From NCBI GenBank assembly GCA_049521795.1, contig JBEKOM010000001.1, forward strand, positions 512,001-576,000: DNA of 64,000 nucleotides, read 5' to 3'. This document shows, in pieces, positions 6,457-45,728 of this stretch (position 1 is the first letter of the stretch; every line of letters starts with the position of its first letter). Under the pieces are notes generated by a model. That model saw only the letters and a list, made by a program, of their open reading frames with translations, had not been told where the DNA came from and did no database searches. A program made the translations under genes and the position numbers. The DNA comes from Candidatus Bathyarchaeia archaeon. Its GTDB lineage: Archaea; Thermoproteota; Bathyarchaeia; Bathyarchaeales; Bathycorpusculaceae.

Positions 6457-7961
6457 ACTTTCTCACACTCGCTAAAAGCTTCTCAATATCGGGTATCTTC
6501 TCCTTGCACGCAAGCTGAGTCGAAAACTGAGCAATTCTAGGAAGATACTTGCTGAAAACGCCCAGCCTCTTCCGTTCCCTGTCAACATGCTCCCTTCTTG
6601 ACAGGAAAAGCTGGAGTTGCCGAGCAACTTCTCGCAGCCCATTTGCAATTTCCCTTCTGACCTCAGGCCTATCGGCGATGAACTCTTTGCCAACCGTCTT
6701 GTACGGGACCTTTGTGCTGCAGATGTGCACCAGAATTGCTATTGGCATTTCAGGAGTGGCATGGTACCTGCGCCAGTTCATCGCCGAGATCACTCTGAGC
6801 GAAACGTCGTTCGCCTCATCATACAAAAGTGGGATTCTGTTTGCAAAACGATAGACGATGAAAGCTCCCCTGCTTGGGACCTCTCCCCCGTAGGCTATGC
6901 CTATTTCGATGATGAACGGGTGCCCAGCGTACGTGGCCGGCTTCCGCTGATGAACAGCCAAAAACTCTGGCTTCAGCTCCTTCGAGACTCCGGTTTTCAG
7001 CAAGTCCTCGCCGAGAGGAGACAGGCAGCTTGCGTCCGGCGGCAGAAATTCCTTGAACCTTTTCATCATATGCATGAGTCTAACGATTTCTTCGTGAGTA
7101 AGTTTTTTCGGGTTTTTGGACGGGCTTAGTTCGCTGAACTCTAAGAACTTCTGCGCGGTGATTTCACCGACACGGTGGAAATGGTTCTTCAAGAAGTCAA
7201 GCATGTTCCTGTATGGCGTGATCTGTATCAACCGTTGAAGCAGTTCCACGTCCACCCCGTACGGATGCGGTTTCGTCTCCTTCGGCGGAACCGGCATATC
7301 CTTGGTGACTCTGGTGAACTTGTACAGCCTGCCCTTTGGGTCTACGAACATCAGGTTTGCGTACGGGTTCACCATGGCCGTCTGCTTGAGGTAATCCAAG
7401 ATCTTCGGCATCGCCCTGAAATAGTCCCCTTCAAGCGTAAACTCGACGACGGTTCCACGCCACAAATCCTTGTTTATCAGAACCTTTCTGTCAAGAATCA
7501 CTGGGCGGTTCCGCTGAATGTCGATCATGAGCTTGTACATGTAGGTCTTCGAGATGCCCGTGCTGGAGATTATCGTGGCCGGCTGATGCGTCGTGATCTG
7601 TCCATACAGAATCGCCATCTTGCCGCCCAAGCCGAACGTTCCCCTCTGCTGCTTAAGCTTGTACTTCGAACCGAAAAGAATCTGTCCAAAGGCAGAAGGA
7701 ATGTGCTTAGGCGGAACCCCGATGCCGTTGTCCTCAACCCGCAACTTGTAAATCTGAGTCTCCGGGGTGGCCTCACCCTCGTAGGACAAGCGAACATACA
7801 CGTCCGGCGGTAATCGGTGGCTTTCCGCTGCGTCCAGCGAGTTCTCCACCAACTCCCTCACTGCCACGAAAATGGCTCTAGACGGATTCGTAAACCCAGC
7901 AATGTCCCTGTTACGGTAGAAAAAAGTCCGCTGCGCTTATTTCCTCAAAAGTCTGAGCCAT
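6428..7961 (-). CDS. top6B: DNA topoisomerase VI subunit B; true start at 7961 with a one-base frameshift in the T6 run at 7920-7925
   Basis: GHKL motifs ELVENSLDA, EDNGIG, RGTFGLG; removing one T joins MAQTFEEISAADFF to YRNRDIAGFTNPSRAIF, the conserved N-terminus. Confidence 0.93.
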
Positions 7962-32664: not shown

Positions 32665-33639
32665 TCACTGAAGCTGTCTTTTCAATGCGTCTTTGAGGGC
32701 TGGCAACACTTCGTAAAGGTTGCCCACGACTCCGTAGTCTGCGATTTCGAATATCGGTGCTTCTGGGTCCTTGTTTATCGCCACGATTATCTTGGAGTCG
32801 CGTATGCCGGCGACGTGCTGGATCACGCCCGAAATGCCGCATGCCATGTAGAGTTTAGGTTTGACCTTGTGTCCAGAGAGCCCTATCCATTCTGTGAACC
32901 ACTTTCTGTCCTCGACCAGCGGGCGTGAGCAGCCGACTTGGCCGCCTAGAACGTTTGCGAGTTCTTCTAGCAGGAGCTTGTCGTCTTTTTTCTCTAGGCC
33001 TCTTCCACAGCAGACCAGGTACTCGGCTTCCTCGACGTTCACGCTTGACGTTTCAAGGGGTTTTCTTTCAACGACTTGGGTCTTCGGTTCCTCAACCTTC
33101 ACGTCTAGTTTGATCACCTGTCCGTTTCGGGTTTGAGGCGTGGGCTTCTCAAACGCTCTTGCGGGCACGGTTGCTACCTGCGGCTTGGACTTGAAGGTCA
33201 CCTTGGCCACGGCGTTTCCGCCGTAGGTTATCCTTTCGCCGATGAGTCTTCTGTTCTCGTCAACGCTCAGTCTTGCGCAGTCTGGCACGCATCCAGTGGT
33301 TAGCCGGGTTGCGAGTCTGGCTGCAAGGGGCTTTCCGTTTCTGGTCGACCCGACGAGCAGGATTTCTGGCCGGTAGGTCATGACCAAGTTGTGCAGGATG
33401 CCTAGGTAGGCTTCAGCCTGAAAATGCTCCAGAGCCGGGTTGTCGGCCAAGAAGACCTTGTCTGCGCCGTATCTTATCAGTTCGTTTGCTTTGTCTTGCA
33501 CGTTGTTTCCGATAAGGATGGCTGTGAGTTCCGTTTGCAGCTTGTCTGCCAGTTCTCTTCCTTTTCCGAGCATTTCGATGGTCAGGTCGTGCGCTTCTGA
33601 GAAGACCCAGACTCCCCTGTTTTCGCTCATCCGGTTCAC
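32665..33639 (-). CDS. etfA: Electron transfer flavoprotein alpha subunit
   Basis: GRG, GCSRPLV, IGLSG..VKPKLY.ACGISG.IQH.AG, AINKDPEAPIF. Confidence 0.95.
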   Translation of the reverse strand: MNRMSENRGVWVFSEAHDLTIEMLGKGRELADKLQTELTAILIGNNVQDKANELIRYGADKVFLADNPALEHFQAEAYLGILHNLVMTYRPEILLVGSTRNGKPLAARLATRLTTGCVPDCARLSVDENRRLIGERITYGGNAVAKVTFKSKPQVATVPARAFEKPTPQTRNGQVIKLDVKVEEPKTQVVERKPLETSSVNVEEAEYLVCCGRGLEKKDDKLLLEELANVLGGQVGCSRPLVEDRKWFTEWIGLSGHKVKPKLYMACGISGVIQHVAGIRDSKIIVAINKDPEAPIFEIADYGVVGNLYEVLPALKDALKRQLQ

Positions 33640-34424
33640 CTTCCGACGACGCCCTCTTGAATCAGTGCTTTGGCCAGCTTCTCCGCGATCTCCTGCACGG
33701 ATTCGCCTGTGATCTTGATCTTCTTTCTCTCCATCTTCGGTGCCAAGGCGTCTATGACTTCGGTTTTTGCGGCGATTTTTTCAGTGGAAACGTTGAGGTC
33801 CTTCAGCGTCCAAGTGACGATTTCTTTCTTCGAAGCTTTCATTATCATCATGAGCGACGGGATTCTCGGCTGGTTTATTTCCCGCGTTACCGAGATTAAG
33901 GCAGGCATCTTCGCCTTCACGGTCTCGCTTGCGTCCTCAAGCGACCTTTCAGCGACGACCGTGTCGCCTTCCACCGCAACTTTTCGCACAGAGGTTATCT
34001 GAGGCAGGTTTAACAGTTCTGCCAGTCTGGGACCGACAAGCCCGCTGAAGCTGTCCAGCGATGCTTCGCCGCAGAGAATCAGGTCGAAGTCAACGATCTT
34101 CTTTATCATTTCAGCAAGAACGTAAGCCGTACCCAAAGTGTCTGCTCCCTGAACGCTTGGGTCATTGACGACGTAGGCTCTGTCAGCACCGATCGCAAGC
34201 GTTTCCCTCAACACGGGCTTTGCGTCTTCAGGGCTCACAGTCAGCGTGACAACTTCGACGCCGCCGAGCTTCTCTTTGATCCTGATAGCCTCCTCCAACG
34301 CGTTCTTATCGAAATCGCTCATTTTCTTAGGCGCGCCAGCCGTGACCAGCCTTCTAGTCGCGGGGTCAACCTTCAACTGTGAAACGTCAACTGCCTGTTT
34401 GAGGCAAACGAGTATGCGCTTCAA
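33636..34424 (-). CDS. etfB: Electron transfer flavoprotein beta subunit
   Basis: ILVCLKQ, FDKNALEEA, GADRA, DLILCG, INQPRIPS. Confidence 0.95.
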   Translation of the reverse strand: MKRILVCLKQAVDVSQLKVDPATRRLVTAGAPKKMSDFDKNALEEAIRIKEKLGGVEVVTLTVSPEDAKPVLRETLAIGADRAYVVNDPSVQGADTLGTAYVLAEMIKKIVDFDLILCGEASLDSFSGLVGPRLAELLNLPQITSVRKVAVEGDTVVAERSLEDASETVKAKMPALISVTREINQPRIPSLMMIMKASKKEIVTWTLKDLNVSTEKIAAKTEVIDALAPKMERKKIKITGESVQEIAEKLAKALIQEGVVGR

Positions 34425-34528
34425 ATAATTTCACCCGTGGCAATCCTTATTGGAGAAACGAAGCATAGAACATGGCATATTAAAACTTTCGCATGACCCT
34501 GTTGAAGAGTCTAATGCTCAAAGAAGAT

Positions 34529-34636
34529 CGACGCGCTGGCTTATCCTCAAATTCGCAACAATTTTGATTTTAAGAGTATATACGTTTTGCATATACACTT
34601 TGTATATACACTTGGCGAGCATCGTTGAAAACGCTG
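34529..34636 (+). repeat. Dispersed non-coding element, copy B (108 bp)
   Basis: ATATACGTTTTGC ATATACACTTTGT ATATACACTTGGC GAGCATCGTTGAAAACGCTG; aligns over 108 bp with 39118-39225. Confidence 0.9.
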
Positions 34637-34945
34637 TTCGTCTGGGCAGGAACGCTACATCCCTGTATTCGCGTTTTGGCCCCGTCTATTTCACCCCCCT
34701 CCCCCTAGGGTACTAGTACTGCACGCAGGCGTTGCGAAGGGCCCTACTAGATTTGCACAGGTCTGAAGCCGAGTTAATGGGAAGGGTTTGGCGGAGGATC
34801 TCGGCAAGGGCGGTGACTTTTCAATGCGCTCGGCCATCACGCCGTCTTTGCCACACGCACACTCTGCAGTATTCACTTCGCATTTAGGCGAAGGTTATAA
34901 TCCTTGTTTGTTGTCACTGTTTGATTCTAAGAAGGGAAGATTTGC

Positions 34946-35095
34946 TTGAACCGATCGAGGAAAAAGCAGGCGAAAAGAGAACGATCTTTGAAAAGAATGA
35001 AAAGTCGAGGAACATGGAAACACGGAAAAAGTAACGGTGAGAAAGTAAGAAGACTAGAAAAAGCGCGAGCTCTTCTAGCCAATGCGTCTCCATAG
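34946..35095 (+). CDS. Putative 49-aa basic micro-protein (MNRSRKKQAKRERSLKRMKSRGTWKHG...)
   Basis: Manual translation; TTG start after purine-rich GAAGGGAAG. Confidence 0.35.
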   Translation: MNRSRKKQAKRERSLKRMKSRGTWKHGKSNGEKVRRLEKARALLANASP

Positions 35096-35678
35096 GACAA
35101 GGCGTCCGCAACTTGCGAAACATGCCTATTCTCTATTAGTTCCTTTCTCTGCGCTTGAGCAAAGGAATCATAACACAGCCTGAACGCCTAGTCCAACGTT
35201 TTCGCGATGTTTCTAAAGCCTGTCTGCGTAGAACAAGGCATCGATGCCATTGCTTTCTCAACCTTCCTTTGAATGAACGTCGTCATTGCGCCCTTTCTTC
35301 TATGAGATTGACCCAATAACTAAATGGCGCGCATGCTTGTTCCTAAATTCATAAATTCCGTTCAAGAGGAAGGCATGACTTTTCCGATGGTGTATGTTTA
35401 CTGTCCCAGTTCGGGCTGGGTGCTTTCTTGCTCTCACACCCTCCCTCCCGGGTATCCTATATGACCCAAATATGATTGAAGAGCAAAACGAGCAACACAA
35501 GCTGCGTTTCAAACAAATTCAGGAACGTGCTAGCCCGCGGAAGAAGCGCGAAGAAACCCGAAGAGAACGTAAAAAAGCGACTTTTGGCCTCTCATCCTTA
35601 TAAGCTAGGCTGAGAACGTATATTGCAAGAAAGGCGCGCTAACCAACTTATCGCAACATCATTTGCCTTAGGACTAGC

Positions 35679-36005
35679 TTGCTTTTTTCTGAAGGGTATT
35701 ACAACATGTTAAATGTGGGGAAGGTATCTGACGGAAACCGTAGCAGATTACAGATCATAGCGGAGATTCTGAGGCAGCTGCGAATGCCGTTAGGAAAGGC
35801 GAACATCATGTCCCATTGCAACATGAGCACAGCACAATCAGGGCAATACTTGAATCTTACGACGTCAAGTAATCTCATTCAGATGGGTGCTGATGCAGGA
35901 AAAGTGACGTACCTGAGAACAGAAGCTGGTCTGGAGTTTCTAGAATTGTACAAGAAGATGGCTCTGCTACTTGATACTGGCATTTCTTCACCTTTTCTAG
36001 TTTAG
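35679..36005 (+). CDS. Archaeal winged-helix DNA-binding protein (HTH_45-like)
   Basis: NRSRLQIIAEIL...KANIM..CNMS...YL..L...LI...Y.RTEAG.EFL. Confidence 0.8.
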   Translation: MLFSEGYYNMLNVGKVSDGNRSRLQIIAEILRQLRMPLGKANIMSHCNMSTAQSGQYLNLTTSSNLIQMGADAGKVTYLRTEAGLEFLELYKKMALLLDTGISSPFLV

Positions 36006-36033
36006 CCAATGCAGAGAAAAGAATGAAGGAGAG

Positions 36034-36216
36034 GTGATGTTGTTGCTGAATATTAAGGATGTCAGGAAGTGCAGGAACTCTTTGGAGCTGAACGACTTTA
36101 TCGAGAAGTACATTGCCGAGGGGAACTCGAAAGACGAGAGTATCGACAGTACATACTGGAGTCTGTTCGAAGAATGGAAAAGAGCTCTGAAGAAGAAGCC
36201 CACGAGCATGCTTTAA
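36034..36216 (+). CDS. Small hypothetical protein
   Basis: 60 aa with GGAGAGGTGA Shine-Dalgarno. Confidence 0.5.
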   Translation: MMLLLNIKDVRKCRNSLELNDFIEKYIAEGNSKDESIDSTYWSLFEEWKRALKKKPTSML

Positions 36217-36273
36217 CGCGCGCTTAAAAAAGGGCAAACTGCCTATTTTTAGGCGTCGATCTGCAAGCGCTTC

Positions 36274-36471
36274 TTGCAGTTGGTCGAGGAATCTGGAATG
36301 AAGAAGAGTGTAGAGAAAATCAATAATTCGGCGTTCGCATCGAACGCATTTGGAATCACAGAGGAGGGGTCGAATAAAGCAGTGAAGAAGTTCAGGTCAT
36401 TAGAGGACATATCCATAGAGCAGAGAAGGAGAGGTGCAAGTCAACCTCTCTACTTGTACCGATATGAGTAG
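36274..36471 (+). CDS. Small hypothetical protein
   Basis: ORF only; probable start ATG at 36298 after GAGGA. Confidence 0.35.
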   Translation: MQLVEESGMKKSVEKINNSAFASNAFGITEEGSNKAVKKFRSLEDISIEQRRRGASQPLYLYRYE

Positions 36472-36491
36472 CGGGCAGATATTGAAGCGGA

Positions 36492-36716
36492 TTATCCGAG
36501 CAGGACTTCCAGTATCAATTTGTGACGTAAGACCTCAGCAAGGTCTGCTTGTTCTATGGCATTTTCCAAAGCATCAAGTTCTTTTTGCACAGTCTTTCTC
36601 ATTTCTTCGCTGATTTTTTGATTGATCTCTTTCATTTGTCTCTGATACAGGTCGTCCGCCTCTCCTCTAAGTCTCCAATAACGCTCCAGCAAAGATTCTT
36701 TTTTGGTTTGTTCCAT
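36492..36716 (-). CDS. Small coiled-coil hypothetical protein
   Basis: 74 aa helical sequence, AGGTGTGA upstream. Confidence 0.55.
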   Translation of the reverse strand: MEQTKKESLLERYWRLRGEADDLYQRQMKEINQKISEEMRKTVQKELDALENAIEQADLAEVLRHKLILEVLLG

Positions 36717-36858
36717 TATTCACACCTTTTTCATCTGTTTTTGTTTGTTATTTGGGTTGCCTCAGTTCATTGATTGTATCAACAGGCATTAATAGTTTGA
36801 GCACCCACGAGAGAAGAAGACAGGCGTCTTTGTTCTCAGGTGAGAAGAAGGCAGTTAC

Positions 36859-36987
36859 ATGGGTTACGCAAGAGGAAAAACAAGAGAAGAAGATCTGAAA
36901 AAACCTAAGCCTCAGAAAAAGAAAGAAAGGGAAGAGAAGCGGAAGAAGAAAAAACTTGCCCGACTCGAAAGACAGCAGTCCAGATAG
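36859..36987 (+). CDS. 42-aa Lys/Arg-rich micro-protein MGYARGKTREEDLKKPKPQKKKEREEKRKKKKLARLERQQSR
   Basis: Manual translation; AGGTGAG upstream. Confidence 0.45.
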   Translation: MGYARGKTREEDLKKPKPQKKKEREEKRKKKKLARLERQQSR

Positions 36988-37208
36988 GCTCGTCTAGAGC
37001 ACAAGCAAGAGAGATTTTCTGTTCGCACAGCACGCGCGTGGCGTGAGTCTATTTCTCACGCAGCGATTGTCTTCTTTTCAGCGCTCGTTTTTGCACGTAA
37101 CGAGCTTACAAAGGTTCTAGGCTATGCCATAAAGACGCACACCAGAGTTTACACGTGCAAATGATTTATATCCGACTTTCCTAGACTCTTTCCTCCGAGA
37201 GTGAAATT

Positions 37209-37526
37209 ATGCCAATATTTTTGATAGTTTCTAGGCATTCTGCAGAGAACTGTCCGCTGAACAATGAGAAGATGAAGAAAATGACGTTAGAATTGCCAGC
37301 CAAATTGGGCGGATTGGAGAAGAAACATGGAGTGAAGAGGATTGGAGCATGGACTGTAGTTCCGGAACATCTGTTGATTTGGGTCTATGAAGCCCCAAGC
37401 TCAGATGCTCTGCAAAAATTCTCGATGGAACCAGAAATGGTAAGATGGATGGCTTGGAACACCAGCGAAATCAAACTAGCAATGAGTCTCGAAGAAAGCC
37501 TGAAACTTCTAAAACAAGTCAAATGA
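37209..37526 (+). CDS. DUF3303/GYD-like small alpha-beta protein
   Basis: FLIVSRHSAENCP...KHGVK.IGAW....EH....VYEAPS; own TATA-like TTTATA and T-rich 3' end. Confidence 0.75.
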   Translation: MPIFLIVSRHSAENCPLNNEKMKKMTLELPAKLGGLEKKHGVKRIGAWTVVPEHLLIWVYEAPSSDALQKFSMEPEMVRWMAWNTSEIKLAMSLEESLKLLKQVK

Positions 37527-37586
37527 AATCGCAACTTCTTTTTTCTCTGATTTTGCACCGGTCATTCAGCCAGCGTGCGCTCGTAA

Positions 37587-37868
37587 TTAATCTCTGTGTT
37601 CGTGGGATTCCTCTTCAGACTCTTCTTCATTCTCTTCTTCTTCCTCGGCAGCTTCTTCTCCTACGGCTCTTGCTTCTTCTTCAGCTTCTCCTTCTGCAGA
37701 ATAAGCCTCATCTAACCAGATCCTGAACTGTTCTTTGCTCTCAGGATCGGAAAAGGCCCACTCGCACAGTTGACTGACAACGGCGTTTAGATCGATGTCA
37801 TGATCGTCGGCCAAATTCTTCAGAAACTGTTCCCACTTTGGAGGCAGAGATATCGAAGACCCAACCAT
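37587..37868 (-). CDS. Hypothetical protein with RHH-like N-terminus and acidic tail
   Basis: SISLPPKWEQFL..LA...VVSQL then poly-Glu tail; GGTGA Shine-Dalgarno. Confidence 0.6.
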   Translation of the reverse strand: MVGSSISLPPKWEQFLKNLADDHDIDLNAVVSQLCEWAFSDPESKEQFRIWLDEAYSAEGEAEEEARAVGEEAAEEEEENEEESEEESHEHRD

Positions 37869-38060
37869 TTTACTCTTTCACCATCACCTTTTATCATTCA
37901 AGCCATATTTAAGCTTCAGACGTACTTTTTGCCCGAAAGGTGCCTGAAACTGAGCGCGCGCTTCAAGCTAGCGAGCGTTTTCGCAGAATGAATCAGGCAA
38001 AATGATAAACAATTTATGAATCCGAAATCTAGACGCACGCTAAAGGAAAGAGACTGGATT

Positions 38061-38213
38061 CTATCTTTGTTCTTTTACCAACAACAGTCTCTTCGCGGTC
38101 TCTTTAGCGATCTTTTCAAGGCCCTCGGCTAATTCTGCACGGGTAACCTCGTCTATTGGATACACTTTCCCATTCTTATCGATGAATGCAAGTTCCAACT
38201 TCCTTTTTTCCAC
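38061..38213 (-). CDS. 50-aa hypothetical protein (MEKRKLELAFIDKNGKVYPIDEVTRAELAEGLEK...)
   Basis: Perfect GGAGGTGA Shine-Dalgarno before GTG; below ORF-track cutoff. Confidence 0.6.
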   Translation of the reverse strand: MEKRKLELAFIDKNGKVYPIDEVTRAELAEGLEKIAKETAKRLLLVKEQR

Positions 38214-38302
38214 CGTTTCACCTCCTTCACACTCTATCATCTGCTACGGCGCGCGCCAACCTAAGAATCACAAGTTCCAATCCGCCATGTAAATCTAGTT
38301 TT

Positions 38303-38602
38303 TTAGTAGTTGCCGCGAGCGCGAGCAAGCTTGTAATTTCTATCTGACTCATCTGACGCTTGCTTGACCTTTCTATCTGACTCCTCGATCGCTCGATCTC
38401 GATCGATCGACGCTTGCTTGATATAGTTGTGTTCGCTCAGGTAGGCCATCACGATTGATCTGATTATTTCTGCGTCCTTTGTTCCAAAGCCTTTCAACGA
38501 CTGGATAATCTCCACTTGGTCTTCATCGAAGGTCACAAGAACGCGTTTACGCGAGCGTGCACCTTGACTAATCACTTCTGTCATGTATTCCTTAATCTTC
38601 AT
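38303..38602 (-). CDS. CopG/ribbon-helix-helix family regulator
   Basis: KRVLVTFDEDQVEII..LKGFG.KDAEIIRSIVMAYLSE pattern; duplicated KQAS..ESDR tail. Confidence 0.7.
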   Translation of the reverse strand: MKIKEYMTEVISQGARSRKRVLVTFDEDQVEIIQSLKGFGTKDAEIIRSIVMAYLSEHNYIKQASIDRDRAIEESDRKVKQASDESDRNYKLARARGNY

Positions 38603-39117
38603 GCACGGTCATATATTCTTTGAGATCCCTGTCTCTTCCTCATTCAGAAAGACCGAATGGTTGCCGTGCTAGGAAGCATTGACGATGCAGTTATGTTCAA
38701 ACTCGGATATGTCAATATGAAGCTTCAAGATCAGATAAGGCCGTTCACATCGCTAAGCAGTTTGTCTCAAGCAAAATGGAAGTACAGAATCAGGTCTTGT
38801 AGAAATAAGTATACGTATTTCTCTCTTGTCATGAAGCGACGATACTCGATAATGAAACCGATCAGGACAACACAAGGTCTGCAAGAGCGAAAACGCACGG
38901 TCAGCCTAAGTCTGAACTTCAAAAGTGAACTCAAAGCTTTTTATCTCAAAAGCGTCCTGTTTTCTTTCATGTGCCCTGGATCTAGCAAAAGGTATGCACG
39001 CGATTACACAGATGAGGAGCTTCGGGCTCAGGCTCGCGATCTCGAGTGCGCCGTAACGATTCCCGTGAACGTGCCGGTGTCTTATTGTGAGCGCGTAAAG
39101 CAGCGCATCGTGGCCTT

Positions 39118-39225
39118 CGGCGCGTTGGCTTGTCCCTAAATTCGCAAAAAGTGCTGATCTGAAAGCATATACAATTTGCATATACACTTTGCATATACAG
39201 TTGACGAGCATCGTTGAAAACGCTG
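39118..39225 (+). repeat. Dispersed non-coding element, copy C (108 bp)
   Basis: ATATACAATTTGC ATATACACTTTGC ATATACAGTTGAC GAGCATCGTTGAAAACGCTG. Confidence 0.9.
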
Positions 39226-39340
39226 AGGCCGTTCAGGTTGGCTGCCGAGCTGTGTGGGCGGTTCAAGTGCGCACGCATAATAGAGGGACACGGCAGCGTG
39301 CTTTACCGCAAGTGATTTAAGAAAAAGGTAGCATCGGCAA

Positions 39341-40222
39341 GTGGGGAATGGAATGGCTTCTCTTCAATCTGTTAATGTCGATAGTGTTGAGCTGAGTTTC
39401 GTTGAGAGAGGCGCTGGGCGGTCAGTCATCTTCATTCATGGGATACCCACGGATTACAGGGCGTGGGATGCTCAAGTGGAAGCACTGTCGAAAGGTTTTC
39501 ACACGCTTAGCTACAGTAGGAGATGCGCATACCCTAGCAAGAGGAAGGACTTCGAGAACAGCACGATCGAGAATAACGCGAAGGACCTTGCTGGGCTGAT
39601 AAAGACGGTTGATGACGGTCCGGTTCATCTGGTGGGCCACTCGTACGGCGGGTTCGTCGCTGTCTACTGCGCGTTTCAGCACCCCGAGCTTGTGCGGAGC
39701 CTCGTTTTGGCCGTGCCCTACATTCCTACCTTGCTTATCAGGAACTTGGACTCTGCTCTGGATAAGTTCTCCCTTCTGGTGAGGAAGCCCTCAGTAGCGT
39801 TGTCTGCACAGAAGTTGTTGAATAACGCGGTTTACCCAGCGTTGAAGGAGCTTGACCAAGGAAACGGTGAGAAAGCCCTGAGGATACACCTCGACGGGTT
39901 GCAGCAGAGGCAGAACGCTTTCGACCAGTTCCCTGAACAAGTCAAGTCGATGCTGCTGGACAATAAAGAGACCATCAGGGAACTGACGACGAAGCTTCCG
40001 CCGTTCACCAGTGAAGAAGCCAGAACGGTTTCTGCGCCCACGTTGTTGATCAGAGGCGATAGCTGTCCGAAAGCCCTATGCGCCATAATCGAACTTCTCG
40101 CCAAAAGCATGCGCAAGAGCCAATCCACAACGGTCAGCAATTGTGCTCACTTCCCGCATTTTGAGAACCCTGAAGAGTTCAACTCGAAGATAAACGAGTT
40201 CCTTTCAAAACAAACCCCATAG
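39341..40222 (+). CDS. Alpha/beta-fold hydrolase
   Basis: IFIHG, VHLVGHSYGG nucleophile elbow, PTLLIRG, AHFPHFENPEEF. Confidence 0.92.
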   Translation: MGNGMASLQSVNVDSVELSFVERGAGRSVIFIHGIPTDYRAWDAQVEALSKGFHTLSYSRRCAYPSKRKDFENSTIENNAKDLAGLIKTVDDGPVHLVGHSYGGFVAVYCAFQHPELVRSLVLAVPYIPTLLIRNLDSALDKFSLLVRKPSVALSAQKLLNNAVYPALKELDQGNGEKALRIHLDGLQQRQNAFDQFPEQVKSMLLDNKETIRELTTKLPPFTSEEARTVSAPTLLIRGDSCPKALCAIIELLAKSMRKSQSTTVSNCAHFPHFENPEEFNSKINEFLSKQTP

Positions 40223-40243
40223 GCCCTTGAGCCCGCAAAATGT

Positions 40244-40280
40244 AGGTTGATTGGCGTAAAGTTTTATCCAAACCAAACTT
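40244..40280 (+). repeat. Palindromic cassette separator 1
   Basis: AGGTTGATTGGCGTAAAGTTTTATCCAAACCAAACTT. Confidence 0.75.
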
Positions 40281-40492
40281 GACGACGATGCCTTGCCGTG
40301 GAAAAAGGCAACCATTGTCAGGGCAATGTATACAGTTCAGAAGACACGGCATTCGCATTGCAAAAAGAGGCTATTAAGAGAATCAGGTCATAATAGGGTG
40401 GGATATAGGTAGTATCGGAATCGAGTATACGGTCGCGTCAATTCCTTTTCAAAAATCTATCATAGGATGGCTGTATCTTTTTTGAGACGTCT

Positions 40493-40606
40493 TTATTTCT
40501 TCTTATTTGCTTTTTTAGCGCATTGGGCACTGCAATATTTGTTTTTGTTATCTAACGTCGTAAAGACTTTTCCGCAAATTGAACATTTCTTTTGAATAAT
40601 TCCCAT
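40493..40606 (-). CDS. 37-aa zinc-finger micro-ORF (CSICGK...YCSAQC), possibly a truncated gene
   Basis: MGIIQKKCSICGKVFTTLDNKNKYCSAQCAKKANKKK; GGTGAGG upstream; AT-rich segment. Confidence 0.5.
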   Translation of the reverse strand: MGIIQKKCSICGKVFTTLDNKNKYCSAQCAKKANKKK

Positions 40607-40657
40607 TCAGTAGACCTCACCACTACAATTACGATTCAACAAATATAAGATTGCGCT

Positions 40658-40691
40658 GGTTGGGGTAAAGTTTTATCCCAAACCCAAACCC
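40658..40691 (+). repeat. Palindromic cassette separator 2
   Basis: GGTTGGGGTAAAGTTTTATCCCAAACCCAAACCC. Confidence 0.75.
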
Positions 40692-40745
40692 GAAGAATCG
40701 AGATGCAGAAAAGTTATAGCCGACCCAAATCAAGACTATCTTGTT

Positions 40746-41252
40746 TTGGCAGTGAAGGTGTCGACAATGATTGACATATCTACTGTTTCCATTGCGATTG
40801 CTTCTGCTGGTGTGCTAGCAGGCGTCATATATTACGTCCTAGAGATTCGGCATCAGAGCAGATTAAGACAAACGGAGAGTATGATTAGACTATCTCCATG
40901 GTTCAATATGAGCGCTAGAGAAGTGCAGGAAGCAATAACTCTAGTCTGTTCAATCGAATACGAAGACTATGATGACTATCTTGCAAGGTATTCGGAAAAA
41001 CCAGAGCACATGATGTTGAAGATTCTTGGCAACTATTTCGAAGGGATAGGCATCCTTGTCTACAGAAAACTGGTAGAAGCAGACATTGTGTCCGATTTCT
41101 GGGGAGATATCATCCGATCATCATGGGAGAAGATTGAGCCACTGATAGTGGACATGCGAAAGGATTCTGGCGACCTTGGCATGTTTGAGTACTGGGAGTA
41201 TCTCTACGAACAAATGAAAAGAAGAAAGCAGAAGCTTCGACCAACAGCATAG
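40746..41252 (+). CDS. DUF4760-like membrane-anchored protein
   Basis: N-terminal TM (SIAIASAGVLAGVIYY), GNYFEGIGILV, FEYWEYLY; probable start ATG 40767. Confidence 0.75.
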   Translation: MAVKVSTMIDISTVSIAIASAGVLAGVIYYVLEIRHQSRLRQTESMIRLSPWFNMSAREVQEAITLVCSIEYEDYDDYLARYSEKPEHMMLKILGNYFEGIGILVYRKLVEADIVSDFWGDIIRSSWEKIEPLIVDMRKDSGDLGMFEYWEYLYEQMKRRKQKLRPTA

Positions 41253-41294
41253 ATTTGGGGTTTGGGGCAGAGTTTTATCCAACCAACCACAAAC
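41252..41294 (+). repeat. Palindromic cassette separator 3
   Basis: GATTTGGGGTTTGGGGCAGAGTTTTATCCAACCAACCACAAAC, starting at the stop codon of the upstream gene. Confidence 0.75.
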
Positions 41295-41392
41295 TACCGA
41301 CCACTGACCACTCTCAACTACTACCCTTACACCTACCTATGCCTACCTACCCATATACAACGCACACGGAGTGAGAGTGAGTGAAGGGCGCG

Positions 41393-41683
41393 TTAGTGTT
41401 TACACTTAGAAAGAATACTATTGACTTCCTCTAAGCTGACATCTCTAATCAGAATTTTCTTCTGCTTTGAAGTAAAACCAGAAATAATTTCACCTTTCTT
41501 CTTGAAAATCCTTGAAAGTTCCTTTATCAACTCTCTATTAACCTTACCTTTTACTGGAGACTCTTTACAATGCACCACAAGTTCATCATCTTCGATCTCA
41601 ATTTTGAATTCTCTCGAGTCTGGCTTAGCGTAGACATTCAGGACTACTCCTTGGTCCGTTTTCAACAGTTTCATTGTTGACAC
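41393..41683 (-). CDS. DUF167/YggU family protein
   Basis: V.AKP.S...P.KGK.NRELIK.LS...IISG.TSK.K. Confidence 0.85.
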   Translation of the reverse strand: MSTMKLLKTDQGVVLNVYAKPDSREFKIEIEDDELVVHCKESPVKGKVNRELIKELSRIFKKKGEIISGFTSKQKKILIRDVSLEEVNSILSKCKH

Positions 41684-41769
41684 AACTTTCTAGTTTCTTG
41701 TTTCTAAATTTGAATGGCTACTTTTAAATATGCGTGCGCCCTCGCTGATACAGGTTCAAGGGATACGTA

Positions 41770-42210
41770 ATGCCCAAGCAGGAAAAGGGAAAGTCGCATC
41801 AGACGAGGCCTGTCGGCAAGCGGCCTCCGAGCTGGTGCAAGTATCAGCCTGAGGAAGTGGAAGCCTTCATCGTCAAGCTGGGCAAGGAGGGGCATTCGCC
41901 GAGCAGGATAGGGACGATCCTGAGGGACCAGCAATCGGTTCCTTTGTCGAAGGCGATAACCGGCAAGAGAGTCTTAAAGGTGCTCAGGGAGAACGAATTG
42001 GCTCCATCCTTACCTGAGGACTTGGCAAGTCTGCTTAAGAAGGCTCACAGTCTGGGGCTTCACTTGGAGAAGAACAGGACCGACCTTTACAACAGAAGGG
42101 CGCTTCAGCTGATTGAAGCGAAGATCCACAAGCTCTCCAGGTACTATAAGCGTGAAGGTCTCTTGCCGCCCGCGTGGAAGTACGAACCCAAAATAGCTTC
42201 AATAACCTGA
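41770..42210 (+). CDS. rps15: 30S ribosomal protein uS15 (S13e)
   Basis: GKSHQTRP, SPSRIGTILRDQ, LPEDL, LQLIEAKIHKLSRYYK. Confidence 0.95.
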   Translation: MPKQEKGKSHQTRPVGKRPPSWCKYQPEEVEAFIVKLGKEGHSPSRIGTILRDQQSVPLSKAITGKRVLKVLRENELAPSLPEDLASLLKKAHSLGLHLEKNRTDLYNRRALQLIEAKIHKLSRYYKREGLLPPAWKYEPKIASIT

Positions 42211-42308
42211 ACACTCCCTTATTCCAAGCGCTTTCCAACAAACATATCTGCTAGCGGCCGCCGGAATGTGCAGTTTAAATCCTTAAATAACTGGGTTCCT
42301 AGCCTAAA

Positions 42309-43772
42309 GTGATTGTCATGGCCTCAGCTTTCGAAGATCAGGCCGCAGGTTTTTTAGGATTGGCTGAAAGTGCAGCCAAAACAATCTCAGAAACTGCCAG
42401 GCAAGACGGGTTGATACACGTTTTCTCGCACTTGGACGCTGACGGGATTGCCGCAGCCGGAATCATAGGAAAAGCGTTGTTGAGGCAGGACGCGAAGTTT
42501 CGAATCCGAATAACCCAGTGGATAGAGGACAAAATCGTCGGCGAGGTTCTTTCAGACAAGCCTCAGCTCATAATCTTCACTGACCTGGGAAGCGGCTACG
42601 TTGACCTGCTCAACCAGAAACTTCCAGACTTCAAAATCGTGATCTTGGACCATCATCAAATCGTCGGCAAAGAGTCAGACAACATTGTCCACGTGAACCC
42701 TCATCTGCAAGGCGTTGATGGGGCCAGAGACATCAGCGGTTCCGGCGTTGCCTACTTCGTGGCTAAGGCTCTGGACAAAGTGAACGTTGACCTATCGCCC
42801 GTCGCTGTCGTCGGCGCCCTCGGAGATCTGCAGGACAAGTATGACCAGCGCATGCTAAAGGGGCTGAATGAAAAGATCGTTGAGGACGCAACAAACTCTG
42901 GTCTCCTGACCGTTGACAAAGACCTTATTTTCTTCGGAAGAGAAACTCGGCCAATCATCAGAGCCTTGGCTTCGACGACAAATCCCTTCATCCCGGACAT
43001 AAGCGGCGACGAGAACAACAGCCTTGCTTTCCTGAAAAGCTTAGGCATTGAGCCAAAGGTTGGGGACAAGTGGCGCGCCCTGAGGGACCTCTCGGAAGAA
43101 GAAAAGAAACGTTTGTGCTCAAAGTTGGCCGACCACCTGGTTTCGAAAGGCCTGCACTACGAGGTGTCGAGCCTCATCGGACACGTTTACATCCTGTGCA
43201 GTGAGGAGCCTTGGACCCCGCTCAGGGACGCCCGTGAGTTTGCCGTCTTGTTGAACGCGACAGGGCGAATGGACAAGGCTGGTCTCGGAGTGGCCGTCTG
43301 CATGGGTGACAGGGGTTCAGCGCTCGAAGAAGCCAACAGAGTGCTTGAGGATTACCGAAGAACCATAAACAAGTACCTCGGCTGGGTGATGGAGAAGCCT
43401 GAAAGAATGAAGGAGTTCGAAAACATATACGTCGTTTACGGGGAAGACTTTATCAACGACAAGATGGTGGGAGCGATCTCGTCTATACTGACTTCAAGCC
43501 TTCCAAACCCGGAGAAACCCTTGATCGCTTACGCAAACCTGCAGGACGAAGGAATCGCAAAAATCTCGGCTAGAACCATGGACACCGTCATAAACAGAGG
43601 CGTTAACCTGGGCGAAGTGATGCAGGTTGCCGCCGAAAAATTCCATGGAAACGGCGGTGGACATAACATAGCCGCAGGTGCGCAGGTCTCGATAGGAAAC
43701 GTCGGCGACTTCATAAAAACTGTGAACGAACTCGTCGGCAAACAGCTCAAGGGCGAGAAGATTGGAAGCTGA
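42309..43772 (+). CDS. DHH-family phosphoesterase (RecJ/Cdc45-like)
   Basis: SHLDADG, DLGSG, LDHH, GALGDLQ, GGGHNIAAGA; conserved position after rps15. Confidence 0.92.
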   Translation: MIVMASAFEDQAAGFLGLAESAAKTISETARQDGLIHVFSHLDADGIAAAGIIGKALLRQDAKFRIRITQWIEDKIVGEVLSDKPQLIIFTDLGSGYVDLLNQKLPDFKIVILDHHQIVGKESDNIVHVNPHLQGVDGARDISGSGVAYFVAKALDKVNVDLSPVAVVGALGDLQDKYDQRMLKGLNEKIVEDATNSGLLTVDKDLIFFGRETRPIIRALASTTNPFIPDISGDENNSLAFLKSLGIEPKVGDKWRALRDLSEEEKKRLCSKLADHLVSKGLHYEVSSLIGHVYILCSEEPWTPLRDAREFAVLLNATGRMDKAGLGVAVCMGDRGSALEEANRVLEDYRRTINKYLGWVMEKPERMKEFENIYVVYGEDFINDKMVGAISSILTSSLPNPEKPLIAYANLQDEGIAKISARTMDTVINRGVNLGEVMQVAAEKFHGNGGGHNIAAGAQVSIGNVGDFIKTVNELVGKQLKGEKIGS

Positions 43773-44010
43773 AATAACGCTGGAATACGAAGATGTGCGA
43801 CTTGCCGAGGCTGTTGCTAAAGCAGTTTCGCCTGACAACCTAAAAACGCCGAGGGGTTTGTCCATCAAAACAGCGTGGCAGGCAAAAAGAGTAATGACTC
43901 ACATAAAATACCATGGAAAGCTCGCAACATTCATCGCCACAATCGACGACCTTCTCTTTTGCGCATCAACAGCAGAAAAAGCTCTTCAAACGGCAAGAAA
44001 TCTTGAGTGA
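43762..44010 (+). CDS. pcc1: KEOPS complex subunit Pcc1
   Basis: 82 aa; AVAKAVSPDN...TFIATIDDLL; conserved context. Confidence 0.8.
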   Translation: MEAEITLEYEDVRLAEAVAKAVSPDNLKTPRGLSIKTAWQAKRVMTHIKYHGKLATFIATIDDLLFCASTAEKALQTARNLE

Positions 44011-44227
44011 GACTCTTCGGGGCCAAGGTCGTCTCCAGCTTATTGAATGTGCTTGGCGCGCGCAATATCAACGGATTTTTGAGCTCATCTGGTTGTGCAT
44101 GGTGTTCGGTAGACGAACAGTATGGTCTCGTTTTTCATGCGTCCATATAAGATTGCTTATGTAGATTGTAGGCACTAACCTATCAGACCTATAAGAAACA
44201 ACGGATATAGATAGACTCGGTAAGAAT

Positions 44228-44287
44228 ATGCCAAAGAAAAGAGCACACGCAGGACTCAAGAAGAAGAAGAAACATCAAGAAACATAA
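44228..44287 (+). CDS. Putative 19-aa basic micropeptide MPKKRAHAGLKKKKKHQET
   Basis: Manual translation in the pcc1-serS gap. Confidence 0.3.
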   Translation: MPKKRAHAGLKKKKKHQET

Positions 44288-44438
44288 TCGACGCACCGCG
44301 CTAATAGAATGAGAACAATATCGCCTCCATCACTCGACTGTTAACAGGAAGAACCGTCACCCGCCAAGTTACTAGAACCCTTTATCATAAGGTTAAATAG
44401 CTAATTCAAGGCTAGACCTAAAGGCTGCGAGTGAAAGC

Positions 44439-45728
44439 ATGCTGGATATCAAACTGATTCGCGAAAGCCCTGAACTCGTGAGGAACAACCTGAGGAAGAG
44501 GGCTGACCCTGACAACCTGAAGATGCTCGATGAACTAATCGACTTCGACAGAAAATGGCGCCAGTACCTGACAGAGTTGAACGACCTTCGCCACGAAAGG
44601 AGACAGGTAACAGCGAAGATTGCTGAGGCCAAAAAGAAAGGAACGGATTCAAGCAGCGAGATGTTGAAAGCAAAAGATGTTGATGCCAAGATCACGAAAC
44701 TGGAAAAACAAGTGACAGAGTGCGAAGAGAAGGTTCACGGCTACCTGATGCGCCTTCCAAACCTTCTGCACGAAACTGTTCCACTTGGCAAGGACGAGAA
44801 TGACAATGTCGAAATAAGAAAGTGGGGCAACATACCCAAATTCGCTTTTCAAGTGAAGGATCACATGGACCTAGGCCTAAACCTCCACATAGTTGATATT
44901 GAAAGAGCGGGAAAGATTGCTGGAGCCCGCTTCTTCTACCTGAGAGGAGACGCGGTTCTCCTCGACATGGCTCTGGTCAACTTTGCCTTGGAAGAGATAG
45001 GCAAGAAAGGCTACACGCCGATAGAACCGCCTTTCCTCATGAGACGAAGACCGTACGAAGGCGTCGTGGCCCTGAGCGACTTCGAAGATGTGCTCTACAG
45101 GGTTGAGGGCGAAGACCTGTATCTGATCGCAACTTCTGAGCATCCGATGGCAGCGATGTTCATGGACGAGGTGCTGAAAGCTGAGGACTTGCCGCTGAAG
45201 CTTGTCGGTGTGAGCACAAACTTTAGGAAAGAGGCAGGTGCACACGGCAAGGACACCCGCGGCATATTCCGGACGCACCAGTTCAACAAGGTTGAACAGT
45301 TTGTTTTCAGCAGGCCCGAAGATTCATGGACAATTCATGAGGAACTCATACGCAACGCTGAGGAGCTTGTGCAAAAACTCGGGTTGCCTTACCGAGTTGT
45401 CAATGTTTGCACGTCGGACATGGGCACGGTTGCGGCGAAGAGATACGATGTTGAAGTTTGGATGCCCGCGCAAAATGCGTACAGGGAAGTGATCTCGTGC
45501 AGCAACGACACAGACTATCAGGCTCGAAGGCTAAACATAAGGTACAGGGAAAAGGAAGGTGCAGCGCCAAAGGGGTTCGTGCACACCTTGAACTCAACAG
45601 CCTTGGCCACCGGCAGAACTATCGTTGCGATAATCGAAAACTATCAACAGAAGGACGGGTCTGTGATCGTCCCAGAAGCATTGAGAAAGTACATGGGCGG
45701 CATCAAGAAAATGGCTCCAAAGCGGTAA
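44439..45728 (+). CDS. serS: Serine--tRNA ligase
   Basis: MLDIKLIRE, LIATSEH, FRKEAG, FNKVEQF, SCSN.TDYQARRL, HTLNST. Confidence 0.97.
   Translation: MLDIKLIRESPELVRNNLRKRADPDNLKMLDELIDFDRKWRQYLTELNDLRHERRQVTAKIAEAKKKGTDSSSEMLKAKDVDAKITKLEKQVTECEEKVHGYLMRLPNLLHETVPLGKDENDNVEIRKWGNIPKFAFQVKDHMDLGLNLHIVDIERAGKIAGARFFYLRGDAVLLDMALVNFALEEIGKKGYTPIEPPFLMRRRPYEGVVALSDFEDVLYRVEGEDLYLIATSEHPMAAMFMDEVLKAEDLPLKLVGVSTNFRKEAGAHGKDTRGIFRTHQFNKVEQFVFSRPEDSWTIHEELIRNAEELVQKLGLPYRVVNVCTSDMGTVAAKRYDVEVWMPAQNAYREVISCSNDTDYQARRLNIRYREKEGAAPKGFVHTLNSTALATGRTIVAIIENYQQKDGSVIVPEALRKYMGGIKKMAPKR

Follow-up and report, generated by a model that had tools for sequence, protein, structure and literature searches.

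The attC sites of integrons are imperfect palindromes of 57-141 nt, which fold as single strands and end in RYYYAAC...GTTRRRY, and the cassettes are mostly promoterless and driven by the cassette promoter (Pc). Archaeal integrons are reported to carry canonical folding attC sites and an integrase (IntI) with an extra domain (Ghaly et al., 2022, PMC9668308). In T4-type phages, the promoter-early stem-loop (PeSL) is a short strong-promoter repeat, highly similar from copy to copy, located in hyperplastic regions of small non-essential genes; the indels and replacements between close relatives end at these repeats, and module shuffling is attributed to recombination from repeat to repeat (Arbiol et al., 2010, PMC2839356). 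Halovirus HF2 has repeated intergenic sequences of 29-58 bp with a B recognition element (BRE) and a TATA box, and when reversed, those of class II are still about half as active (Russ, Pfeiffer and Dyall-Smith, 2021, PMC8707807). Putative mobile promoters, i.e., highly similar promoters located before unrelated genes, have been found across taxa (Nijveen, Matus-Garcia and van Passel, 2012, PMC3575422). Here we describe an array of small unrelated genes separated by a short repeat in a 64-kb stretch of a Bathyarchaeia genome (called the window below, i.e., the whole stretch of DNA analyzed). Our preferred reading, to which we give a probability of about 0.6, is that the array consists of promoter-headed one-gene modules which have been reshuffled at a dispersed, repeated, two-way promoter box.

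Three copies of the decamer AGTTTTATCC are present in the window, at 40260, 40669, and 41271, all of them on the + strand; 0.10 were expected, and 0/100 shuffled sequences reached three. The degenerate 19-nt core proposed in a preliminary description of the window matches at the same three places only (expected 0.06), and a repeat search groups the three copies as a single 25-nt family with spacings of 409 and 602 nt, which bears out the three same-strand repeats reported in that description. The consensus of the 17-bp core, called the box below, is GGGTAAAGTTTTATCCC, and its copies are the following:

40254-40270, + strand: core copy 1, GCGTAAAGTTTTATCCA, two mismatches to the consensus; predicted BRE/TATA box of the non-coding unit on its right.
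40663-40679, + strand: core copy 2, GGGTAAAGTTTTATCCC, no mismatches; predicted to drive the DUF4760 gene and, possibly, the micro-ORF (open reading frame) in the other direction as well.
41265-41281, + strand: core copy 3, GGGCAGAGTTTTATCCA, three mismatches; faces the 3' end of the DUF167 gene.

Core 1 begins 31 nt past the stop codon of the hydrolase gene and core 3, 12 nt past that of the DUF4760 gene; core 2 lies upstream of both neighboring genes, as initially stated. The conserved part is the center of the element and not its ends: the GGG...CCC frame is invariant, and the sequences of the arms vary. What the arms have in common is their composition, the left one (about 12 nt) being C-poor, with GGTTT, GGTT, GA, GT, and GAA runs, and the right one (about 12 nt) G-poor. 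The imperfect palindrome of the preliminary description was found to hold as regards this mirrored composition only: folded as single-stranded DNA, the three copies gave no significant hairpin on either strand (z only -0.10 to -1.25 versus shuffled sequences), and genome-wide the complementarity of a copy's own arms was no better than that of the arms of unrelated copies (mean score 6.6 versus 6.8). The half-boxes taken alone were not enriched (GGGTAAAG, 68 matches versus 108 with the reversed control; TTTTATCCC, 22 versus 19).

The distribution of the box was analyzed in the window's own genome (G000; 2.44 Mb, 98.75% complete) and in close relatives, which are Bathyarchaeia/Bathyarchaeota metagenome-assembled genomes from soil and peat. 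The genus set includes G000 and 10 other genomes, and the outgroup set, 30 genomes from outside the genus. Copies were scored against the 17-bp consensus at up to three mismatches, with the reversed consensus as the control. G000 contains 53 matches, versus six in the control (33 versus 0 at up to two mismatches), and subtracting six probable chance matches left the 47 copies analyzed here. These copies are clustered: 21 neighbor pairs are less than 3.5 kb apart, as compared with an expectation of 2.8-3.4, and none of 2000 simulations gave more than 10. The orientation is the same in 15 of these 21 close pairs and mixed genome-wide. The exact 15-mer is present in 9 of the 10 other genomes of the genus (1-23 copies each) and in only 3 of the 30 genomes outside it (1-2 copies), and the control gave 0 matches everywhere; the box is almost confined to one genus. 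The clustering looked for on the basis of the preliminary description was therefore found in the form of a genus-wide family, and not as a motif scattered singly after conserved genes.

In IMG/VR, at least 120 loci carry the exact 15-mer. Among the 80 inspected, most have no arms and fit chance, and about nine have arm-like flanks. Two of these arm-bearing contigs (L224 and L165) are true tailed archaeal viruses carrying the box with typical arms; Pfam identified Phage_capsid_4 on one of them, and tail tube and HK97-gp10 on the other. On L165, the box is flanked by two structural genes which share one strand, the box itself being on the other. On a further IMG/VR contig (L154), a Shedu SduA-like gene and a CAP12/Pycsar-type TIR gene converge on a box, which places defense genes among the modules.

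The array lies in a synteny gap extending from 38630 to 41712: in relatives showing about 92% DNA identity, the left-hand homology to the window stops at 38629 and the right-hand homology begins at 41712 (the rps15 TATA box), and these two flanks do not adjoin each other there. Inside the gap, 40257-40689 matches the G001 genome at 394043 (89%), from box to box. The flanks of 87 copies oriented on the box (the 47 from G000 and 40 from G001, G002, and G009) were compared. All nine families with a common flank of at least 100 nt share one side only, and on the other side the homology ends at most 15 nt from the box; 0/40 foreign box loci retain the box together with two-sided collinearity with G000. 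The other islands show the same mosaic pattern. The TRAM modules of G000 and G009 are 94% identical, and on G009:C8, a row of four modules shows 90.8-96% identity to G000 modules from three different contigs, while the background between these two genomes amounts to 72% for the valyl-tRNA synthetase (ValRS) gene and 68-74% in other parts of the G009 C8 contig. A hot spot located between a thiamine pyrophosphate (TPP) riboswitch and ValRS is 22 nt long in G005 and contains 1 to 12 kb of modules in G009, G002, G000, and G001; no box was found at its outer borders. The cargo of the islands (GNATs, glyoxalase, SnoaL/DUF4440, EthD, DsrE, SDR, MBL-fold proteins, methyltransferases, and DUF4760) is typically accessory.

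One clean case of presence/absence was observed. A 305-bp module present in G001 (L281:427-730 = G001:C1:1681610-1681913) and absent from the orthologous site in G000 carries a hydrophobic ORF of 33 codons together with a box and two GC boxes, which makes it a minimal self-contained cassette. The empty G000 site shows neither a box nor a duplication, which argues against box-by-box integration as the sole route. Within the species, the order in the window is stable: contigs from four samples and four studies span the same junctions, the metagenome depth and the joints in the window having been judged from Logan contigs. The contig joints 40278>40657, 40684>41259, and 44363>40657 have 23-34 nt on their shorter side and lie inside repeats, and were not used as evidence of excision or circles. 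The gene-cassette shuffling suggested in the preliminary description is thus retained as far as the units are concerned, since they occur at unrelated loci in relatives and their homology ends at the boxes, and the order of the cassettes, including that at the DUF167-rps15 flank, was found not to be fixed; the machinery and the site structure of an integron were not found.

The box is composed of an A-rich BRE-like tract, GGTAAA, followed by a T-rich TATA part, GTTTTATC, the whole framed by GGG and CCC. The archaeal BRE/TATA consensus is RNWAAW/TTTAWA, and the archaeal TATA box is centered about 26-27 nt upstream of the transcript start. On G000 contig C6, the variant GGGGCAAAGTTTTATAG (13/17) has its TATA start 33-34 nt before the Rfam match to the signal recognition particle (SRP) RNA (RF01857, 157.8 bits), the 5' end of which was proxied by the first position of the Rfam model. 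An A-tract followed by a TTTTAT-type box was found at the same distance in 23/23 SRP loci inspected in the genus, the family, and the order. This SRP box reads GGCAAAGTTTTATA in 8/8 genus loci and GGGTAAAGTTTTATAGG in the sister genus g5, and in genera g1, g2, g4, g7, and g9 the SRP promoter likewise has a G/T-rich arm on its upstream side. The upstream regions of the tRNA genes in G000 are of the CGAAAG-C-TTAAAT type, and that of tRNA-Gln carries CTAAAGTATTTATCCC. The box also occurs at a fixed position directly before a conserved non-coding unit (see below) in 10 of its 13 copies, and its position is promoter-like at two RNA gene families. Since the BRE/TATA sequence is associated with a promoter position wherever this can be judged (SRP RNA, tRNA-Gln, and the non-coding unit), we infer that the separator at the island copies is a compact, near-symmetric archaeal BRE/TATA core promoter of the same type as that of the SRP RNA gene. 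We take the box to be functionally near-symmetric because an A-tract followed by a T-tract can be read on either strand, and because 2 of the 10 non-coding units have a flipped box with their flanks in place. This near-symmetry would explain the lack of any orientation preference toward the genes, as well as the compositionally mirrored arms.

If the boxes are promoters of this kind, copy 1 would start a structured non-coding RNA of about 170 nt (40271-40445) belonging to a multi-copy family, and copy 2 would start the DUF4760 mRNA (leader of about 65-90 nt, GGTG ribosome-binding site), while the divergent micro-ORF may be driven from it as well. Copy 3, which is found at the 3' end of DUF167 in three genomes, might be an antisense start, a roadblock, or a relic. 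The array would be a mosaic of self-sufficient modules, each made up of one gene or one RNA and its own box, which may have been gained, lost, reordered, and passed between the species of the genus. The junctions fall at a common 13-bp sequence, TAAAGTTTTATCC, and their simplest cause would be recombination between dispersed promoter copies along with selection for intact transcription units.

Several points weigh against this promoter-based reading. On the basis of crude gene calls, the 53 boxes show no orientation preference to genes: 14 are tandem +, 11 divergent, 10 convergent, and 9 tandem -, and the remaining ones are inside called ORFs (8) or at a contig end (1). A hand count in the annotated islands gave about 16 boxes toward a gene start and 11 into a gene 3' end, and these mixed counts are not what a plain one-way promoter predicts. 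The distance from the box to the next same-strand start is mostly more than 100 nt. The near-invariance of all 16-17 positions, including GGG/CCC, exceeds what the TATA-binding protein and transcription factor B usually demand, and could reflect an extra specific DNA-binding protein or a recombinase. The promoter of the RNase P RNA gene is of another type (the G000 assembly has no 16S gene of which the promoter could be inspected). Lastly, the junction pattern would be equally expected from a site-specific system.

The latter explanation is the main rival, because the traces expected from a site-specific enzyme acting within the 13 bp would be the same, and the crossover point cannot be placed inside this identical stretch. 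The 13-17-bp box would then be the crossover site of a putative site-specific recombinase, and circular or virus-borne mini-cassettes with one box would insert at another box or at a look-alike promoter. We consider such dedicated cassette exchange unlikely, although all nine flank-sharing families break at the box and some exchanges look reciprocal: gene Z-box-SRP in G000 versus Z-box-other in G002:C8 and DUF4760-box-SRP in G002:C21. A ZnF-upstream-like arm-box-DUF167 arrangement in G002:C28 can likewise be set against ZnF-box-DUF4760-box-DUF167 in the window. The identity of the modules between species, which is far above the background, and the shared orientation of 15/21 close box pairs also agree with dedicated exchange, as does an insertion between rps15 and a DHH-family gene in relatives, which starts directly after AGTTTAAATC, a look-alike of the right half of the box. 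Tyrosine recombinases are present beside two islands (C7:73.6-76.4 kb and C4:107.7 kb), but neither of the two island-linked integrase families tested follows the distribution of the motif. In addition, 16-17 conserved bp with variable arms are short for a full tyrosine-recombinase site, the empty site of the 305-bp module has no box or duplication, and the outer borders of the ValRS hot spot have no box.

The search for an integron gave 10 Phage_integrase matches in G000, none of which is inside the window array. The best match to the NCBIfam integron integrase model TIGR02249 reached 53.4 bits (cut-off 265), those to PRK15417 were at most 26 bits (cut-off 435), and none reached the IntI or XerA cut-off. 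The Y1/HUH transposase PF01797 gave 0 matches in G000. The preliminary description had mentioned the absence of clear RYYYAAC...GTTRRRY ends, and no GTTRRRY was found within 80 nt of any copy. Two features are shared with integrons, as the content of the arrays differs between related genomes and the same unit is found in different arrays. The units are on both strands, however, and the boxes have mixed orientations, unlike one-orientation integron cassettes; and since the separators look like BRE/TATA promoters, each unit would have its own expression signal, unlike promoterless integron cassettes. The analogy with integrons drawn initially therefore does not hold, in view of the lack of an IntI match and of a folding site, the mixed orientations, and the promoter-like boxes. 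The co-occurring recombinase or HUH nuclease which it called for did not appear either: there is no HUH match, and the two integrase families linked to islands do not follow the motif. The large tandem integrase is present in 5/10 genus genomes, not including the box-rich G008 and G009, and in genera without the motif; the RNase P-linked family is present in 24/30 genera and so does not track the motif.

Some side observations were made on these recombinases. The tyrosine-recombinase gene at G000:C4:107392-108627 (L119, L111) starts 42 nt past the RNase P RNA gene, at the border of a three-box island, and the layout is that of a putative element integrated at a stable-RNA gene. A GC-rich sequence of about 90 bp (GGAGCGCGAGCGTGATGCGAGCGCGAC...) directly follows two tyrosine-recombinase genes in G000 (C1:236651-236737 and 382488-382585), and was also seen in G009:C8 (L321:851-946), where it adjoins a promoter box bordering a module array; this type of sequence may be an attachment site. 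No tRNA genes were found beside the arrays, except for one in L115. Repeats of 83-88 bp with a tRNA-like TΨC-arm (GGACTCGAACCC...) are located at L112:746-833 and 7077-7159 (G000:C3), and several copies occur in the G001 island at 2.29-2.31 Mb; ARAGORN predicted no tRNA at these repeats. Two other types of site were tried and rejected: cassettes bounded by inverted arms, because only 3-4/21 neighbor pairs stand out and the median equals the null, and repetitive extragenic palindromes or bacterial interspersed mosaic elements (REP/BIME) with their associated transposase (RAYT) or IS200/IS605 ends, because there is no Y1 HUH match and no significant fold.

A broader version of cassette exchange can be put forward, which we regard as possible but still on the improbable side: the Bathyarchaeia of soil and peat may possess their own system of cassette exchange, with the promoter-like 13-17-bp box as the crossover site instead of a folded attC. 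Modules of 0.2-2 kb, each with a two-way promoter, would move between arrays, species, and tailed viruses by means of a putative recombinase or of host recombination harnessed via a box-bound protein.

The box might also be a punctuation element which is not a promoter at most sites, i.e., the site of a dimeric DNA-binding protein (an insulator, a roadblock terminator, or an operator) overlapping a TATA-like sequence. This would suit the independence of the box orientation from the genes, the two non-coding family members with a flipped box, and the invariant GGG...CCC frame, along with the boxes located between convergent gene ends (core 3, and SduA/TIR on L154) and on the opposite strand between virus structural genes. 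We nevertheless find it quite improbable, as SRP RNA and tRNA-Gln tie this type of sequence to promoter positions, T-runs are not enriched, there is no significant hairpin, and no candidate binding protein was found in the analysis. A plain terminator was rejected in view of the T-runs beside the box, T5 or longer runs occurring in 5/47 copies on the left and 5/47 on the right versus a frequency of 0.12 in background intergenic DNA.

That the box and its arms form a tiny mobile 'portable promoter' resembling a miniature inverted-repeat transposable element (MITE), inserting in intergenic DNA with only secondary rearrangements, is very improbable: the approximately 47 near-identical copies in one genus, the 3-4 neighbor pairs with matching inverted inner arms, and the putative mobile promoters described in the published bacterial survey (PMC3575422) speak for it, but there are no general terminal inverted repeats or target duplications, the inner-arm median equals the null, the half-boxes are not enriched, no transposase partner was found, and no orthologous intergenic pair differing by the box alone was found, the single indel being the 305-bp module with its small ORF. 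A MITE proper was rejected, because general terminal inverted repeats are lacking, the units differ in size and content, and the indel between G001 and G000 shows no duplication.

Among the units read here as promoter-headed modules, the non-coding unit following core 1 was analyzed as follows.

40271-40445, + strand: candidate small RNA of about 170 nt, with a C/A-rich arm, TGACGACGATG, a variable hairpin region, and an invariant 3' block, ATCGGAATCGAGTATACG.

The family extends from just past the box to ATCGGAATCGAGTATACG, and its 13 copies are distributed among 8/11 genus genomes. The 10 members preceded by a box have it in the forward (8) or flipped (2) orientation; two more have a degenerate one, and one has none. 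RNAalifold predicted a 12-bp long-range helix between GTATAC.CGGTTC and GGAATCG.GTATAC, which is conserved but without covariation, and one T-A to C-G change was seen by eye in the 5' hairpin between the window and G001. The short ORFs inside 40271-40445 are not conserved; in particular, a 29-aa leaderless ORF after core 1 was rejected as a gene, since it is not conserved in G001 or in the paralog. No Rfam match was obtained at E<=1 in 33000-45000. The unit is a candidate for a new small-RNA family.

The other units of the array and its right border are the following:

39353-40222 (open from GTG 39341), + strand: alpha/beta-hydrolase gene, left of core 1; Pfam Abhydrolase_6 9.4e-20 and Abhydrolase_1 1.3e-17.
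40493-40606, - strand: 37-aa CxxC...CxxxC micro-ORF, the upstream region of which runs to core 2; Pfam zf-C2H2-type 7e-4, below the cut-off.
40768-41252, + strand: DUF4760 gene, Pfam 1.1e-13; likely start ATG 40768 after GAAGGTG, open from TTG 40746.
41282-41349, + strand: low-complexity stretch of 68 nt, almost G-free, between core 3 and the DUF167 unit; absent from the copies of two relatives (alignment).
41393-41683, - strand: DUF167 (YggU-like) gene, Pfam DUF167 7.4e-14; a relocating unit.
41712-41769, + strand: rps15 promoter region; synteny with all the relatives resumes at CTTTTAAATAT, and homology to L021-L025, L031, L040, and L095 starts at 41705-41719.

The genes initially assigned to these units were all recognized by Pfam, with the reservation that the hits of the micro-ORF were below the cut-off; the hydrolase gave no NCBIfam equivalog at the cut-off. 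The micro-ORF module is common to relatives independently of 40271-40445: 40461-40678 shows 94.5-95.9% identity to G002:C23 and G009:C8, which are 98.5% identical to each other, and the depth of this module in metagenome contigs is 10-20x that of its flanks. In the case of the DUF4760 module, 40666-41278 is 92% identical to G002:C21:17274-17886, which is located there between a 'gateway' repeat and the SRP RNA promoter, and this G002 copy is preceded by the box GCGCTAAAGTTTTATCCC at the same position as core 2. The DUF167 unit (41350-41714) shows 91-92% identity to G002:C28 and G001:1263430 and 86% to G001:595408 and G010:C32, none of which adjoin rps15. A box resembling core 3 is present at the same position and in the same orientation beside this unit in G002:C28 and in G001 (1.263 Mb), and the left neighbor differs each time; in all, G002:C28 and two G001 loci have a box on the 3' side of the unit.

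Other repeats and insertions were observed in and around the window array. The segment 39120-39302 ('gateway C'), just upstream of the hydrolase gene, contains three TTTGCATATACA repeats and looks like a reusable upstream or operator module. Together with 34650-34848, 35327-35539, and 38055-38237, it makes up a set of distinct repeats of about 180-210 bp which are not mutually alignable, and dozens of copies of these repeats occur at 75-90% identity in G000, G001, and G002. The syntenic loci of G001, G002, and G010 lack the 326-bp segment 44054-44380, which is skipped by an X4 contig, has 3-5x the depth of its flanks, and looks like a further small inserted repeat. At 42285, the gap between rps15 and the DHH-family gene contains insertions of 1.8 kb in G010, 5 kb in G002, and at least 6 kb in G001, with a common right end; their left junction directly follows AGTTTAAATC, and the two genes are adjacent in the window and in more distant relatives. 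In G000, GCGCGCGC occurs 417 times versus about 30 expected, and 298 of these occurrences are intergenic although intergenic DNA accounts for 14% of the genome. It was often seen in the form of TAGCGCGCGCTA directly past stop codons (e.g., L112:5465-5480 and L112:11225-11240), as a second punctuation element.

Bathyarchaeia are abundant and uncultured, and their promoters and the turnover of their accessory genome are almost unstudied. The locus yields a testable promoter consensus for one genus and a candidate new small-RNA family. Single-gene modules are seen here to pass from one species to another, their junctions falling at a repeated promoter box, which would be the logic of the T4-type cassettes in an archaeal chromosome; if a dedicated enzyme turned out to be involved, gene-cassette capture would have a second route besides that of integrons.

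A full-text literature search for such repeats in cellular archaea returned the halovirus HF2 paper only. The repeats of HF2 resemble the present ones in being archaeal intergenic promoter repeats, and those of class II provide a precedent for two-way promoter repeats. They are viral, however, and positionally conserved among related viruses, and are not reported to be module junctions; the box described here is chromosomal, with about 47 copies per genome, and is found at rearrangement points. The mobile-promoter survey is a general inventory which, in its account of these promoters, does not include arrays, junction behavior, or archaeal BRE/TATA boxes of this kind. With integrons, as they are portrayed in the archaeal report, the locus shares arrays of small unrelated accessory genes split by a short site, a variable content, and the presence of acetyltransferases, glyoxalases, and proteins of unknown function; it differs from them in that no significant fold, R/L boxes, or IntI were found here, the orientations are mixed, and each unit has a promoter-like box. 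As in the hyperplastic regions described for the PeSL, box repeats are present in regions where the indels and replacements between relatives end at the box. The differences from the PeSL, as it is depicted in that description, are that the box is of the archaeal BRE/TATA type and belongs to a cellular archaeal chromosome (it is also present on two tailed-virus contigs), and that the PeSL includes a stem-loop terminator, whereas the box, which is near-symmetric and also occurs flipped, shows no significant hairpin and no T-run enrichment. Mini-circles resulting from exchange between neighboring repeats are reported for the PeSL, as compared with contig joints only, inside repeats, in the present case. 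On the whole, the array is closer to the 'mobile regulatory cassettes' of T4-type phages than to an integron, and would be the archaeal chromosomal counterpart of the PeSL mobile regulatory cassettes.

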